Source of the DNA: an uncultured Clostridia bacterium
Lineage (GTDB): Bacteria; Bacillota; Clostridia; Oscillospirales; Ruminococcaceae
Length of the DNA stretch: 64,000 nt
NCBI GenBank assembly: GCA_947089135.1
Contig: CAMUJF010000001.1
Span: 10,362 to 74,361, forward strand
Reading direction: 5' to 3'
The position numbers and the translations under genes were made by a program. The notes below the pieces were generated by a model that did not search any database, was not told the origin of the DNA, and saw only the letters and a program-made list of their open reading frames with translations. Positions 1,975 to 61,672 of the stretch are shown here, in pieces. Numbering within the stretch: position 1 is the stretch's first letter; each line of letters begins with the position of its first letter.

Positions 1975-2088
1975 ATTTATTTACCTCGCTTTGTAATCGC
2001 AAATCGTACGAGCGGATATGAAAATCCTCCACCACGAAAGGCATAAATTTATGATTATTTTTTCTGTATTATCTAAACAAACCCCATC

Positions 2089-2171
2089 GCCCCCTTGAGG
2101 GGGCATTGCCAACTATAAAATCAACAGTAAAGTAAAATAGGGGGTGACTCACGCTGCAGGGCGTTCCCTGC
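2089..2171 (+). repeat. GC-hairpin repeat family, copy 1 (full)
   Basis: GCCCCCTTGAGGGGGC (2089-2104), a 35-nt spacer, then GGGGGTGACTCACGCTGCAGGGCGTTCCCTGC. The last base is part of the dnaN stop codon. Confidence 0.85.
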
Positions 2172-17644: not shown

Positions 17645-17765
17645 AAAAATCAATCCTTTCAAAAGCTTGCAAACATTTTATATAATAAATACAACTCAGA
17701 GCGGCAGAATTTTTCATGGAAAGAAAAATTTTTCAAAAAATTTGTGGGATATTAGCATTACACAT

Positions 17766-17795
17766 GGGGTGACTCAGCCTGCGGAGGCTCTACGC
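17766..17795 (+). repeat. GC-hairpin repeat family, copy 2 (module B only)
   Basis: GGGGTGACTCAGCCTGCGGAGGCTCTACGC ends exactly at the dnaJ stop codon (17796-17798). Confidence 0.7.
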
Positions 17796-18950
17796 TTACT
17801 TCTCGAATGCCTGCTTGATCTTATCAAAGAAATTGTTCCGCTTTTTGTAATTTTTGTTTTCGTCAAGGGACTCGTCAAAGGCTTTCAGCAGGTCTTTTTG
17901 TTTTTTGGTAAGATTGCCCGGAACTTCTATGGTAACATGAACGAACTGGTTTCCCCGGTCGCTGCGGTTTAGCTTTTTGATACCCTTGCCTTTGAAGCGG
18001 AAAACCGTTCCCGGCTGTGTACCCTCGGGAATAGTGTAGGAAACAGTTCCGTCGATCGTGGGAACTTCAACCTCGGCGCCCAGAGCCGCCTGAACAAAAG
18101 TTATGGGCATTTCGGTGTGAACATCGTAGCCGTCCCTCTCAAAGATAGCGTCTGGACGAACGGTAACGGTAATAAGCAAATCGCCAGAGGGACCGCCGTT
18201 TATTCCTCCGTGACCTTGACCGGAGGTGCGTATGGTCTGACCGTCGTCAATACCCGCAGGTATCGAAACGCTGATAGTTTTCTCAACGCTGACACGTCCG
18301 TTGCCATGACATTTCGAGCAGGGATTTTTTATTATAGTACCCTTTCCTCCACACCTTGTACATGGCTTCTGGGAGGATATCATGCCGAACGGCGTGCGCT
18401 GAGTTACCTTTATCTGACCCGTTCCGTGACAGTCGGGACAGGTATCTGCCGACGAACCCGCTGCCGCACCCGAACCGTTACAGTCTGGACATTTCTCCAT
18501 ACGAGAAATGTGAATGTCGGTGCTGATACCCTTGCAGGCATCCATAAAGCTGATAACAACGCTTTTCTGAATATCCTGACCGCGCCTCGGAGCGTTGGGA
18601 TTGCTTCTTGACGAAGAACCGCCGAAGCCTCCGAAAAAGCTGGAGAAAATGTCGCTGATATCGCCCATGTCTCCGAAGCCGCCGGAGAAACCGCCTCCGT
18701 AGCCTCCTCCGCCGTAGGAGGGGTCTACACCTGCGTGACCGAATTGATCGTACCTCGAACGCTTTTCTGGGTCGGACAGTACCTCGTAAGCCTCGTTGAC
18801 CTCCTTAAATTTTTCCTCGGCTTCCTTGTTGTCGGGGTTGAAGTCAGGGTGATATTTTCTTGACAGTTTTCTGAACGCCTGTTTTAGTTCGTCCTCGGAA
18901 GCCCCTTTCTGAAGCCCCAGCACCTCGTAATAATCTCTTTTATCAGCCAT
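17796..18950 (-). CDS. dnaJ: Molecular chaperone DnaJ
   Basis: J-domain with KYHPD, a G/F-rich region and four CxxCxGxG zinc motifs. The start is set to ATG 18950 ([12 protein letters not shown]). Confidence 0.96.
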
Positions 18951-19072
18951 ATGGGCATTTCCTTTCATGTAATGTAAGTATATATATTGTAAATTATTTC
19001 TAATTGTATATCCGTCATAAAACAGCTTTCGGGCGGAAATTTTCCGCCCTTGGCTTATTCCTGATTGATTTA

Positions 19073-19176
19073 CCCGCCCCCTTGAGGGGGCTTGATAAGG
19101 TTAAAATTTTTTGTATTTATCTTTGGGGGAGACTTTGTCAGCGCTTCGCTGCAGACTGCCGCGGGGCGTTCCCCGC
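19073..19176 (+). repeat. GC-hairpin repeat family, copy 3 (full)
   Basis: CCCGCCCCCTTGAGGGGGC, a 33-nt spacer, then GGGGGAGAC...GCGGGGCGTTCCCCGC. It ends at the dnaK stop (19177-19179). Module B has a 20-nt insertion. Confidence 0.85.
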
Positions 19177-21036
19177 TTATTTTTCTGTAAAGTCCGCGTC
19201 AACAAAATCTCCGCCGTTATTGTTATCATCGGAAGAAGAACCGCCCATGTCAGCGCCTGCCGCACCTGCCGCGCCGTCCTGCTGAGCCTGCGCTCCCGCA
19301 GCCTGATATATCTTCTGGGAAACCTCGTAGAACGCTTTCTGCAATTCCTCGGTCTTAGCCTTTATATCGTCGGTGTTGTCGGTAGCGTTTGCAGCCTTAA
19401 GGGCGTCTATCTTGGACTGGATATTAGCCTTTTCCTCCTCGGAAATCTTATCGCCGAAATCGGTGAGAGCCTTTTCGCACTGGAATACCATGTTTTCGCC
19501 CGCGTTCTTCGCGTCAACTGCGTCCTTGCGCTTCTTGTCTTCGTCGGCGTAGCGCGCAGCTTCGTCAACGGCTTTCTGAATGTCCTCCTTAGACATATTT
19601 GTAGACGCGGTAATGGAGATCTTCTGCTCCTTGCCTGTACCTAAGTCTTTTGCGGATACGTTAACGATACCGTTTGCGTCGATATCAAATGTTACTTCGA
19701 TCTGAGGTACTCCTCTGGGAGCGGGAGCGATACCGTCAAGACGGAAAACGCCAAGCTGCTTGTTGTCCTTTGCGAATTCGCGCTCGCCCTGAAGTACGTT
19801 GATGTCAACAGCGGTCTGATTGTCCGCATATGTGGAGAACACCTGCGACTTCTTTGTAGGAATAGTAGTGTTTCTTTCAATCATTCTTGTGCAAACGCCG
19901 CCCGCTGTTTCGATACCGAGGGAAAGGGGAGTAACGTCCAGCAGGAGGACAGCGTTTTCCTTGTCAACGTCGCCGGAAAGGATACCGCCCTGATATGCGG
20001 CTCCGAGAGCAACGCATTCGTCAGGATTGATTCCCTTAAAGGGATCCATGCCCATGAAGCTCTTTACAGCGTCCTGAACAGCGGGGATTCTTGACGAACC
20101 GCCAACCATGAGTACCTTTTTAATGTCAGAGGGCTTAAGACCCGCGTCGGAAAGAGCCTGCTTAACGGGACCCATTGTGGACTGTACAAGATCGCTTGTC
20201 AGCTCGTTGAACTTAGCTTGCGAAAGCTCCATGCTCAGGTGCTTAGGACCTGTCGCGTCCGCGGTAATGTAGGGAATGGAGATCGAAGCGGAGGGAGTAG
20301 CCGAAAGAGTGATCTTAGCCTTTTCAGCCTCGTCCTTAAGTCTCTGCATTGCAAGCTTATCGCCGGAAAGGTCGATTCCGTCGGACTTCTTGAATTCATC
20401 GATCATCCAGTTTATGATACGCTGGTCGAAGTCATCGCCGCCCAGACGGTTGTTACCCGCCGTGGCAAGAACCTCGGTAACGCCGTCGCCCATTTCGATA
20501 ATGGAAACGTCAAACGTACCGCCGCCTAAGTCGTAAACCATAATAGTCTGATCGTCTTCCTTGTCGATACCGTAGGAAAGAGCCGCAGCCGTAGGCTCAT
20601 TGATGATACGTCTTACAGTAAGACCTGCGATCTGACCCGCGTCCTTGGTAGCCTGTCTCTGAGCGTCGGTAAAGTATGCGGGAACGGTGATTACGGCTTC
20701 GGTAACGGTATCATGGAGATAAGCCTCCGCGTCCGCTTTCAGCTTCTGGAGGATCATTGCGGAAACCTCCTGAGGGGTGTACTTCTTGCCGTCGATATCT
20801 ACCTTGTAATCGCTGCCCATGTGTCTCTTGATTGAAGCAACGGTTCTGCCCGCGTTTGTAACAGCCTGGTTCTTGGCAACCTGACCAACAAGACGTTCGC
20901 CAGTTTTTGTAAAGCCAACAACAGAGGGAGTGGTTCTGCCGCCCTCGGCGTTTGTGATAACGGTAGCGTTTCCGCCCTCAACAACGGCAACGCAGGAGTT
21001 TGTAGTACCTAAGTCGATACCTATAATTTTAGCCAT
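19177..21036 (-). CDS. dnaK: Molecular chaperone DnaK (Hsp70)
   Basis: Hsp70 signatures IDLGTTNS and DLGGGTFD. The start is set to ATG 21036 ([10 protein letters not shown]). Confidence 0.98.
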
Positions 21037-21084
21037 AAAAATCATTTCCTTTCTGTTTTATCTATTATATTATAATTATTTTGA

Positions 21085-21167
21085 CCCGCCCCTTTGAGGG
21101 GGCTTGACAATGTTGAAATCTATTGTATTTTTCTTTGGGGGTGACATCGCCCGCGGGGGCTCCCCGC
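21085..21167 (+). repeat. GC-hairpin repeat family, copy 4 (full)
   Basis: CCCGCCCCTTTGAGGGGGC, a 33-nt spacer, then GGGGGTGACATCGCCCGCGGGGGCTCCCCGC. It ends at the grpE stop (21168-21170). Confidence 0.85.
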
Positions 21168-21743
21168 TTATGGATTTGCAACTACCACCATTGCGCATCT
21201 TATCACCTTGTCGCCCAGCTTGTAGCCCTTTTGGTAGACCTGCGAAACCGTGTTCTCGCCGAAATTCTCGTCCTCCACCTGACTTACCGCGTTGTGGAGG
21301 TTAGGGTCAAACTCTTTTCCGAGAGCCTCTATTTCCTCAACACCGAGCTTTTTGACCACTTCGGTGAACTGTCCGTAGATCATCTCCACGCCTTTTTTGT
21401 AGCTCTCGTCGGAACATTCCGCAGCCATTGCCCGCTCAAAGTTGTCTATTACGGAGATAACTTCGAGAGCAGCCTTTGCGGTAGCATCGGCGGAAGCGTC
21501 CAGCCGTTCCTTTATAGAACGCTTGCGGAAGTTGTCGTATTCGGCAAGGAGCCTCAGGTATTTGTCCTTGTCGGCAGCGGCAGCGTCCTCTAAGGTTTTT
21601 ATTTTAGCTTCGAGAGAAGCCACAGGGTCTTCCTCAGCTTCGGAAGCTTTTTCCGATACGGAAGTCTCTTCCGCATTTTCGGCTGCCGTTTCCGCTTCGG
21701 CCGTTTCCTCAGAGTTCAGACCGTCCTTTTCTTCATCTATCAT
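21168..21743 (-). CDS. grpE: Nucleotide exchange factor GrpE
   Basis: 191 aa with an acidic N-terminus and a conserved GrpE C-terminal domain. Operon position is hrcA-grpE-dnaK. Confidence 0.94.
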   Translation of the reverse strand: MIDEEKDGLNSEETAEAETAAENAEETSVSEKASEAEEDPVASLEAKIKTLEDAAAADKDKYLRLLAEYDNFRKRSIKERLDASADATAKAALEVISVIDNFERAMAAECSDESYKKGVEMIYGQFTEVVKKLGVEEIEALGKEFDPNLHNAVSQVEDENFGENTVSQVYQKGYKLGDKVIRCAMVVVANP

Positions 21744-25443: not shown

Positions 25444-25527
25444 GCGGGGAACGCCCCGCGGCGAAAGTCACCCTCGCAGATAATTACAGCATACTGTTAT
25501 TCCGCATAGCCCCATCAAGGGGGGAGG
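25444..25527 (-). repeat. GC-hairpin repeat family, copy 5 (full, inverted)
   Basis: The plus strand reads GCGGGGAACGCCCCGC..GTCACCC, a 35-nt spacer, then GCCCCATCAAGGGGGG. It lies 9 nt downstream of the stop of the 25536 gene. Confidence 0.8.
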
Positions 25528-52312: not shown

Positions 52313-52357
52313 GCGGGACGGGAGCGCCGTCTCCTGCGTGTGTTCCCTGTCCCGCTA
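52313..52357 (-). repeat. GC hairpin overlapping the mreD stop codon (possibly related to repeat module B)
   Basis: On the minus strand: TAG-CGGGACAGGGAAC...TCCCGTCCCGCTTTAT. This is a 12-bp stem whose first base pair uses the G of the stop codon. Confidence 0.5.
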
Positions 52358-53080: not shown

Positions 53081-53109
53081 GGTGCATGCGCCTGCGGGGA
53101 CTCCCCGCC
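53081..53109 (+). repeat. GC-hairpin repeat family, copy 6 (module B only)
   Basis: GGTGCATGCGCCTGCGGGGACTCCCCGCC ends 0-1 nt from the mreC stop codon (53110-53112). Confidence 0.65.
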
Positions 53110-53970
53110 TCAGCCCGCAGGGGCTCCCTGCCCGCCCTGCCCGTTGAAGCTGGTTATTACGAATACCGTTGAAACGTTGTCGGGGTCTATGGCAGGCTTT
53201 ATTACTGCGTACTTTGATAAGCCGCTGTCCTCCATACCTACTTCGGTAACCGTGCCGATAAGCTGATTTGCGGGAAAGGTCTCGCTTCCCGAGGTAACGA
53301 TTATGTCCCCCTCTTTAACGTCGGCGTTCTTGCTGATATAGCTCATGCGGCAGCAGCCGTTTTCGGCAAGCTCATAGTCCCCCTCGATGATACCTGTCGC
53401 CTTTGTGCGGACGATAGTCACTCCCACAGCCGTTTTCGGGGAGTACAGCGTGCGCACCCTGCTTGTGCTTCTTGCCACGTCGTAGCAGATACCCACCAGT
53501 CCCGAGGAAGTGATAACAGGATCATAGGGAGCGATCCCGTCGTCGCTGCCCTTGTCAATGGTAAATGAATGATACGGGTCGTTCGTGGTACGGGCTATTA
53601 CCGTGCATGGGGGAGAAAAAACGTAATCGTCGTATTCCTCCTTAAGTCCCAGCAGTACGCGGAGCTGCTCGTTCTCGCGGGTTATTTTGTCATAGTCTAT
53701 GATGTCGTTGTAGACCTCGTTAAGGGTCTCTTTAAGCTCAATGTTTTCTTTGTAGTACTTTTCCGCGTTGAAAAGCATATCCAGCGTAGAGGTCACCTTG
53801 TCTGATATCTGAGTAGATATCTTCTGAAAGGGCTCGAACAGAAAGCTGAACACCGACGCGCTGTCGGGGCTGTAGCCTCCCTGAGTGAGGCTGTAGACCG
53901 CTATGCCCAGAATCACAGCCATAAGCGCGGCAAGGATCTTAAATTTTGTTGTTTTAAAAAAATCCTTCAC
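53110..53970 (-). CDS. mreC: Rod shape-determining protein MreC
   Basis: 286 aa with an N-terminal TM helix, a coiled coil and a beta-barrel domain. It has a Gly-rich tail. Confidence 0.9.
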   Translation of the reverse strand: MKDFFKTTKFKILAALMAVILGIAVYSLTQGGYSPDSASVFSFLFEPFQKISTQISDKVTSTLDMLFNAEKYYKENIELKETLNEVYNDIIDYDKITRENEQLRVLLGLKEEYDDYVFSPPCTVIARTTNDPYHSFTIDKGSDDGIAPYDPVITSSGLVGICYDVARSTSRVRTLYSPKTAVGVTIVRTKATGIIEGDYELAENGCCRMSYISKNADVKEGDIIVTSGSETFPANQLIGTVTEVGMEDSGLSKYAVIKPAIDPDNVSTVFVITSFNGQGGQGAPAG

Positions 53971-61519: not shown

Positions 61520-61606
61520 GGGGCGGGGAAGCCCCCGCAGGCTGAGTCACCCCCAATGTAACGTCACTGCAATTATTTACAAATCGAGCCCCCTCAAGGG
61601 GGCGGG
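61520..61606 (-). repeat. GC-hairpin repeat family, copy 7 (full, inverted)
   Basis: The plus strand reads GCGGGGAAGCCCCCGCAGGCTGAGTCACCCCC, a 33-nt spacer, then GCCCCCTCAAGGGGGCGGG. It lies between divergent genes. Confidence 0.85.
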
Positions 61607-61672
61607 CAAATTTTGCTTAAACCTATATTTTTACGCAATTTATCTTATCCGCAGCCGTTGAAAGGAGTTTTT

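Follow-up and report, generated by a model that had tools for sequence, protein, structure and literature searches.

One of the questions raised by this locus is why a short GC-rich repeat begins at the very nucleotide at which genes end. The locus is a 64-kb stretch of DNA from an uncultured Clostridia bacterium (64,000 nucleotides, called the window throughout), and the repeat is module B, a GC hairpin of 15–16 nucleotides (nt), here H1, followed by a 7-nt linker, which together form the 5' part of a repeat unit of ~82–100 nt. An earlier note on the window had described module B as abutting or overlapping the stop codons of dnaN, dnaJ, dnaK, grpE and mreC, with a similar hairpin at the stop of mreD, and all six junctions were confirmed on the minus strand. 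It had also placed a copy in both long spacers and at the 3' end of the hrcA-grpE-dnaK-dnaJ operon; all three are present, the one after dnaJ being truncated. In this paper we looked at the repeat in the draft genome G000 and across its genus, a lineage of uncultured Oscillospiraceae (“Ruminococcus sp.”) from animal guts that is represented by metagenome-assembled genomes (MAGs). The repeat joins gene ends at an exact junction and in sense orientation, uses the same gene ends in separate lineages, can replace the stop codon of its host gene and is in places flanked by target duplications. It is genus-specific and probably non-autonomous, and in a literature search no description of a repeat family made of H1 and its core was found.

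Repeat Copies at Gene Ends

The copies in G000, a 2.52-Mb draft, were collected by an nhmmer profile search and then curated against open reading frames (ORFs) of at least 60 codons. The gene calls come from a crude longest-ORF caller and the stop-distance counts were curated by eye. A copy is called flush when the stop of an ORF lies at 0 or -1 nt from H1, and the P value for flush stops is binomial, against random intergenic placement. About 32 copies were found, 12 of which are flush (P ~2e-17); the claim of the earlier note that the juxtaposition is unlikely by chance is therefore borne out by 12 of 32 copies at two offsets. One more copy has the stop at +3, seven have it inside H1 (the TGA of a loop variant) or at a TGA of the linker, and the other 12 lie away from stops. 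The distances form a spike at -1/0 with almost nothing at 2–30 nt. None of the flush copies is in reverse orientation, all of them being in sense with the gene (P 1e-6 for orientation). Units that consist of H1 without a core are found flush as well (n = 4), after spoVG, atpG, a gene for an ABC ATPase and mreC. In a second species, with a 100%-complete genome (G013), about 14 of 31 copies are flush, and the genome-wide enrichment at stops that the earlier note had proposed to look for is thus present in both G000 and G013.

The host genes are housekeeping genes and their junctions are mostly operon-internal. They encode S10, L23, L2, IF-2, RNase Y, BipA, AtpG, SpoVG and TpiA, and further Asd, CarB, PyrF, a hydrogenase, GrpE, DnaK, DnaJ, DnaN and MreC. 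Scanning all gene ends for hairpins of any family gave a modest excess at -1/0 (8 and 8 hairpins, against 2–6 per offset elsewhere), which indicates that the effect is carried by the H1 family and not by hairpins generally. None of the 16 hairpins at -1/0 has a T-rich tail in the sense orientation, so the flush hairpins are not intrinsic terminators, and canonical terminators are found further downstream in the same spacers, for example after dnaK and after tRNAs.

The junction is also found where no protein ends. Six of the 35 tRNA genes carry an H1-like hairpin 0–1 nt after the encoded CCA (P ~2e-9), usually with a linker, upstream of a canonical terminator and diverged in sequence, and in G013 one full copy abuts a tRNA CCA end. 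The rule is therefore not tied to translation; a stop codon and a CCA end have in common that they are the last constrained base of a gene product.

The copies and related hairpins of the window are collected in Table 1. The pattern GCGGGGANNCCCCGC, with up to two mismatches, occurs nine times in the window against 1.8 expected.

Table 1. Copies of the repeat and neighbouring hairpins in the 64-kb window (positions of the whole stretch).
Feature	Position	Strand	Details
Full copy after dnaN	2087..2171	-	H1 2156-2171
Truncated copy after dnaJ	17757..17795	-	nhmmer positions 5-54, E 2.9e-4
GC hairpin with T-run between repeat and dnaJ	19019..19049	-	In all genus members
Full copy, dnaK-dnaJ spacer	19070..19176	-	H1 19161-19176, core 19074-19133
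Full copy, grpE-dnaK spacer	21082..21167	-	H1 21153-21167, linker, core 21086-21145
Full copy away from stops	25444..25523	+	Co-oriented with downstream plus-strand gene
Longer GC hairpin, different repeat type	52313..52357	-	Hairpin 52313-52355
Two tandem H1 + linker units without core, mreC end	53094..53131	-	Second H1 53094-53108
Full copy, divergent intergenic region	61523..61609	+	Co-oriented with downstream gene

At grpE, the TAA (21168-21170) directly abuts H1 with no spacer, and at dnaK the stop (19177-19179) is followed at once by H1, the junction reading TAA and then GCGGGGAACGCCCCGC. The dnaK-dnaJ copy carries an additional hairpin of 22 nt within its linker. The hairpin with a T-run that lies between this copy and dnaJ occurs in every member of the genus, whether the repeat is there or not, which makes it an ancestral dnaK-dnaJ terminator or attenuator that stands outside the repeat. 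The TAA of dnaJ (17796-17798) also directly abuts H1, in this case an imperfect one (17781-17795, five of six pairs), after which the linker follows and the core breaks off at 8 nt. In dnaN the G of the TAG (2171-2173) is the first stem base of H1, and in mreD the G of the TAG (52355-52357) is the first G of the longer hairpin. The end of mreC goes further: its last seven codons are a translated H1 + linker unit (53117-53131) that gives the tail GQGAPAG, its TGA (53110-53112) is the linker's own TGA, and the second H1 (53094-53108) starts one G after it. The copy at 25444 is flanked by an imperfect direct repeat of ~34 nt, and the G021 orthologue of the copy at 61523 has a 62-nt internal deletion between two C5 runs.

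Two other features of the window were noted. On the plus strand at 19161-19176, the dnaK H1 followed by TTATTTTTC scores as an intrinsic terminator on the antisense strand; TTATTTTTC is the reverse of the A-rich last dnaK codons and TAA, and such a score is not general among copies. Between 8824 and 16644, near the origin, seven to eight parS-like palindromes (TGTTCCACGTGGAACA and variants) occupy nearly every spacer around soj/spo0J.

Origin of the Stop Codons

Another question that is raised by these junctions, and was asked by the earlier note, is whether the stop codon belongs to the gene or to the element. Comparison of orthologues indicates that both occur. Orthologues of dnaK, grpE and the L2 and L23 genes without the element end with the same last residue and TAA, so in these genes the stop is native. 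DnaK ends in ...DFTEK (...FTENN and similar in other clades) and then the stop, with or without the repeat; GrpE ends in ...VVANP and TAA in nearly all relatives; and L23 (...FDGMM) and L2 (...RRNGK) are each followed by TAA genus-wide.

The dnaN gene gives the other answer. Its empty sites have TAA or TGA, and the filled sites of G000, G012, G013 and G014 have a TAG that overlaps H1; judged from these sequences, the dnaN stop in filled sites is derived from the element. In G008 and G024, dnaN has one extra codon and then TGA-GCGG-H1. Every junction TAG in G000 and G013 is TA joined to GCGGGG, and in neither of these two species does a complete GCGGGG come after a TAG. The codon is enriched at the junctions: six of the 16 flush stops are TAG, which accounts for 13% of stops genome-wide (P 0.011). 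The element's TGA also ends ORFs, namely those of mreC, an ABC exporter, inosine monophosphate cyclohydrolase, a SpoU methylase and an aminotransferase.

Structure of the Repeat

The full unit is built in the order H1, linker and a 60-nt core. H1 has the consensus GCGGGG-loop-CCCCGC and the linker occurs as GGGCNGA, AGGCNNA or GGCGANN. The core starts with GTCACCCCC, continues with a spacer of fixed length (74% A+T) and ends with GCCCCCTCAAGGGGGCGGG. In 113 distinct copies the core is 59–63 nt long in 107 and the H1 stem is perfect over 6 bp in 82. More than ten arm pairs of H1 have changed on both sides with the stem maintained, among them GCAGGG/CCCTGC, GCACGG/CCGTGC, GCGGAG/CTCCGC and CAAGGC/GCCTTG. 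H1 is equally intact in flush and non-flush copies, which makes the integrity of the hairpin a property of the element and not of its location. The loop variant GGCTGAGCC carries a TGA, and its subfamily has stops in all three frames within the first ~19 nt.

Beyond H1, RNAalifold supports only an invariant GCCCCC/GGGGGC hairpin, and a model of the core as a three-way-junction RNA was rejected. Taken over the 113 copies, the middle spacer does not fold into a conserved hairpin (mean z -0.46, 14% below -2); some orthologous copies, those after L23 and L2, do form a spacer hairpin. Only a minority of copies retain an outer stem, GTCACCC/GGGTGAC. Rfam 15, whose models include self-cleaving ribozymes, riboswitches and CRISPR repeats, gave no match at gathering score in the window and only chance-level matches (E>1) at positions 18950-21250; four loci that contain young composites (described below) had no match at E<=0.1.

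A sigma-70-like signal is present on the opposite strand of the core; in the grpE copy it reads TTGACA, 16 nt, TATTTT (window 21104-21131, plus strand), and it would fire antisense across H1 into the 3' end of the upstream gene; its hexamers are only ~50% conserved across copies. G000 also contains, for example on C1 and C26, other multi-copy GC hairpins that are distinct from H1, GCGCTCCGCAGAGCGC (11 copies) and GCCGCCAATGGCGGC (nine copies). Both modules also occur in long mosaics beside young copies in G020 and G024.

Distribution, Spread and Decay

The core was looked for in 24 genomes of the genus, in 17 other families of the order and in 120 further genera of the family. Sixteen of the 24 genomes contain it, with copy numbers across the genus that run from 0 to 67, and it was found in none of the 17 families or the 120 genera. 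Two genomes, G024 and G020, show species-specific bursts of near-identical copies, which lie at contig ends and break the assemblies. The young copies of these genomes sit in composites of 300–430 nt together with other GC-hairpin modules, and the composites are bounded by inverted repeats of 36 nt in G020 and 30 nt in G024, made of an AT-rich palindrome (TAAAT..ATTTAG) and the 5' arm of H1. Young copies are mostly away from gene ends; where one is at a gene end, the host stop is the TAA of the inverted-repeat arm. The old copies of G000 have no terminal inverted repeats beyond GTCACCC/GGGTGA(C), itself kept in a minority. They decay by deletion between short internal repeats. The units can also be arranged in tandem: in G013 (C9:23017-23240) three full units lie head-to-tail with an 82-nt period, flush after a 457-codon ORF, and at the junctions of this array GCGG is common to the 3' end of one unit and the next H1.

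Flanking direct repeats of 14–62 nt are kept in five of 28 G000 copies. Among the sequences duplicated are the last codons of carB, the 5' end of tsaD and the 5' end of a flavoprotein gene. At G000 C13:30984-31148 a copy interrupts a tsaD-like gene (MKILAIESSC..) at about codon 10; the ribosome-binding site and first ~30 nt of the gene are duplicated downstream, and an intact gene start thus follows the element. Such duplications of coding ends indicate that insertion is not limited to stops and is accompanied by long target duplications of variable length.

The same gene ends are used again in different lineages. At the dnaK stop, flush H1-type units were seen in no fewer than three clades of the genus, and one more distant genome has them too; the carB stop is occupied by different H1 subfamilies in G000 and G013. 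In about ten species the copies behind L23 and L2 are orthologues, and both arms of their H1 have changed; at these sites some species keep only remnants, and G013 has a reversed, non-flush copy after L2. In other Oscillospiraceae genera, hairpins of a similar design and different sequence (e.g., GTGGGTAGCACCCAC followed by GGGC) were seen flush with grpE and dnaK stops, and the habit of flush hairpins may thus extend beyond the genus.

Two further motifs were noted near ribosomal-protein genes. Upstream of rpsS (G000 C1:114300-118600) lies a conserved motif, GAAATGTTGCGTAAT .. ATTACGTTTCAC, which is a hairpin and is found in element-bearing members of the genus but not in the clade that is free of the element. 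Most members of the genus also have a conserved GGAAG..CTTCC hairpin in front of rplB. Both may be leader or regulatory structures of ribosomal-protein operons.

Search for a Mobilising Enzyme

If the repeat moves, the next question is what moves it. The genomes searched are draft MAGs whose contigs break at repeats, and a missing transposase is therefore weak evidence. With this limit, none of the candidate mobilisers tracks the element. Y1 (PF01797) was absent from G000, G024, G020, G009, G019 and G008, no TnpB was found in G000 or in the burst genomes examined, and IS110 and DDE_Tnp_1 were absent from the burst genomes. Retro-insertion was dropped as a candidate, reverse transcriptase being absent from the burst genomes. 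An IS630-like DDE_3 transposase was also rejected as the mobiliser, as the G000 fragments of this kind end in ..GCTATA, which is unrelated to the repeat. These IS630-family (DDE_3) fragments lie at contig ends (C15:198-514, C22:77-265, C45:53-289 and C12:12426-12743) and are diverged, one of them with an internal stop.

The insertion sites were also compared. No clean pair of filled and empty sites with a target duplication of fixed length was found, the loci being old, decayed or with rearranged spacers. The left neighbours of H1 are TAA, TA, TGA(G) and CCA, while copies that are not flush have G-rich runs there; this is not the fixed 4–5 nt target that PATE elements derived from IS200/IS605 have at the left end. 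On the 258-kb contig the GC skew tracks the gene strand and not replication, so it gives no usable replichore map.

Possible Explanations of the Junction

The explanation that we favour, with a probability of roughly 0.55, is that the module B repeat belongs to a mobile mosaic that resembles repetitive extragenic palindromic (REP) sequences, bacterial interspersed mosaic elements (BIMEs) and miniature inverted-repeat transposable elements (MITEs), and that its acquisition is directed to, and tolerated at, the exact 3' boundary of genes with the help of its own stops. The 5' G of the element would be joined in sense to the last A of the upstream functional unit, that is, after TAA or TGA, after TA (in which case the G completes TAG) or after the CCA of a tRNA. 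Since the element carries stops at its 5' edge (the edge TAG and the TGA of the loop variant or linker), the end of the host gene would be kept, replaced or slightly extended in a harmless way. The junction would then result from directed acquisition at the 3' boundary followed by purifying selection, and the mobiliser would be a DDE-type transposase that was missed in the draft genomes. On the mRNA, a stable GC hairpin that lacks a U-tract would lie right at the 3' end of the cistron, in the stretch covered by a ribosome during termination. There H1 may act as a REP-like barrier to 3' exonucleases and may modulate termination or the yield of the upstream gene; such an effect on the RNA, which the earlier note had raised with the REP elements of E. 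coli malEFG in mind, is plausible.

Several observations weigh against this proposal. The mobilising enzyme is missing from the candidates searched (Y1, TnpB, reverse transcriptase, IS110 and DDE_Tnp_1), a point that is weak in draft MAGs, and no clean filled/empty pair was found with a fixed-length target duplication. Old flush copies do not have the AT-rich outer part of the inverted repeats that bounds the young composites. A triplet target alone cannot yield the observed pattern: TAA/TAG by itself would place roughly 5% of copies at real stops, against the ~50% that are seen. Lastly, the persistence of the L23 and L2 copies in about ten species and the flush hairpins after tRNA CCA ends fit selection at the RNA level at least equally well.

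This last point leads to the strongest of the other explanations, which we consider rather unlikely. In it the flush register itself is selected, H1 being a hairpin that defines or protects 3' ends, or a site cut at its 5' base by an endonuclease, set in either case at the very end of a cistron or tRNA so as to give differential stability within operons, and mobility is only the means of delivery. Many of our data would follow from such a role, as all flush copies are in sense, lie inside transcription units and upstream of canonical terminators (tRNAs and dnaK), and have housekeeping, operon-internal hosts; the L23 and L2 copies have long persisted in the S10 operon with their H1 arms changed on both sides, diverged hairpins are flush with the CCA ends of six of 35 tRNAs, and the grpE and dnaK stops of more distant Oscillospiraceae also have flush H1-like hairpins. 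Yet closely related species differ in whether a given gene end has a copy, and decayed or deleted copies are common, which means that any benefit of H1 is weak. Copies that are non-flush, antisense or reversed also occur, and H1 is no less intact away from stops. In quasipalindrome mutagenesis, templated correction can alter both arms of a hairpin without selection, and the changes on both sides of H1 could have arisen through such palindrome-templated correction. Moreover, a stable hairpin at the CCA is expected to hinder exonucleolytic trimming of the tRNA.

A very doubtful option is that H1, with or without the core, serves as RNA ‘punctuation’, the transcript being cut exactly at the 5' base of H1, either by its own cleavage activity or by an endonuclease of the host that recognises the hairpin. 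The idea can be likened to the tRNA punctuation of mitochondria or to the 5'-terminal ribozymes of co-transcribed retroelements. If it were true, the stop codon or the tRNA CCA would be the exact 3' end of the upstream RNA, and the element would spread as harmless or useful only in that register.

Still more improbable is that the hairpins are ordinary intrinsic terminators or attenuators near stops, or that the zero distance arose from deletional erosion of a neutral spacer. GC hairpins at gene ends are what terminators would give, deletions between short repeats are observed in the family, and on the opposite strand the dnaK H1 with the reverse of AAAAATAA scores as terminator-like; but no T-run follows H1 in sense at -1/0, the real terminators lie further downstream in the same spacers, the distance spike has no decaying tail, and the dnaN stops were replaced and not merely approached.

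That the copies are single-strand DNA elements of the IS200/IS605 type, the first suggestion of the earlier note, or of the REP-associated tyrosine transposase (RAYT) type (PATE/REP), inserting 3' of a target that contains TAA/TAG, is scarcely tenable: hairpin ends, the lack of terminal inverted repeats in old copies, a left junction that is always after TA(A/G) or A and a GTAG/GTAA head before some copies, which resembles a REP head, would suit it, but G000 and the high-copy genomes lack Y1_Tnp, which does occur in members of the genus that have no copy of the element, no TnpB was found, the long variable flanking duplications and the 30–36 nt inverted repeats of the composites are foreign to that family, and within one 64-kb stretch beside the origin the orientation flips with the genes (dnaN, the dnaK operon and mreC minus; 25444 and 61523 plus), where lagging-strand targeting predicts one strand.

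Comparison with Known Repeats and Significance

Of the known systems, the REP sequences and BIMEs of enterobacteria and pseudomonads are similar to the module B repeat in many respects. They are short, GC-rich imperfect palindromes with many copies that form mosaics with other hairpin modules; they are extragenic but transcribed, lie at gene 3' ends or between cistrons, and are lineage-specific with copy numbers that vary among relatives. The REP sequence at malE-malF stabilises the upstream mRNA, and a REP within ~15 nt of a stop codon reportedly lowers translation. Unlike these, module B has an exact junction to the stop or CCA (0/-1 nt), is always in sense when flush, can supply the stop, and joins H1 to a 60-nt core in which the ends are conserved and the spacer is fixed. 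It differs from RAYT-associated REP sequences and REPINs (paired REP sequences) in that no Y1/RAYT gene was found in these draft MAGs, and in that H1 units are single or head-to-tail in tandem, whereas REPINs are inverted pairs.

The mycobacterial interspersed repetitive units (MIRUs) are alike in being small intercistronic repeats of operons that are oriented with the genes and overlap the upstream stop; those in intercistronic spacers are said to overlap the stop codon of the upstream gene. MIRUs are tandem units of 40–100 bp with small ORFs that overlap the stop and the next start. In contrast, no ORF or start spans the unit described here, the downstream genes begin 40–100 nt after it, and the junction is a GC hairpin. 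Integron attC sites, which are structured recombination sites at or overlapping the stop of the preceding gene in one orientation, share the conserved ends, the variable middle, the start at or over the preceding stop and the single orientation; however, no RYYYAAC/GTTRRRY core sites and no cassette arrays are seen here, and the neighbours are core housekeeping genes and tRNAs.

The young composites, with their inverted repeats of 30–36 nt, their lack of coding capacity and their species-specific bursts, are in part similar to MITEs such as Correia/NEMIS. The long direct repeats of variable length (14–62 nt) recall the IS4 family (IS1634/IS1549 group), as IS1634-type insertion is reported to produce long and variable target duplications. 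Unlike MITEs, the old flush copies do not have the outer inverted-repeat arm, no duplication of fixed length was seen, and no matching transposase was found in the draft genomes. What distinguishes the repeat from the known ones is the base-exact, sense-only docking to stops and tRNA ends together with the donation of stop codons.

Provided that the junction rule is correct, a small repeat is able to colonise the most constrained spacers of the genome, those of ribosomal-protein, chaperone and tRNA operons, and its exact docking at the boundary, together with its own stops, would be a natural example of the rules by which an intragenomic parasite is tolerated. For annotation, the repeat explains odd C-terminal tails (such as GQGAPAG of mreC), lineage-specific changes from TAA to TAG and contig breaks in MAGs of this genus. 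The family also offers a natural series for the effects of 3'-adjacent structure on translation termination, ribosome rescue, mRNA decay and tRNA 3' maturation in Clostridia.

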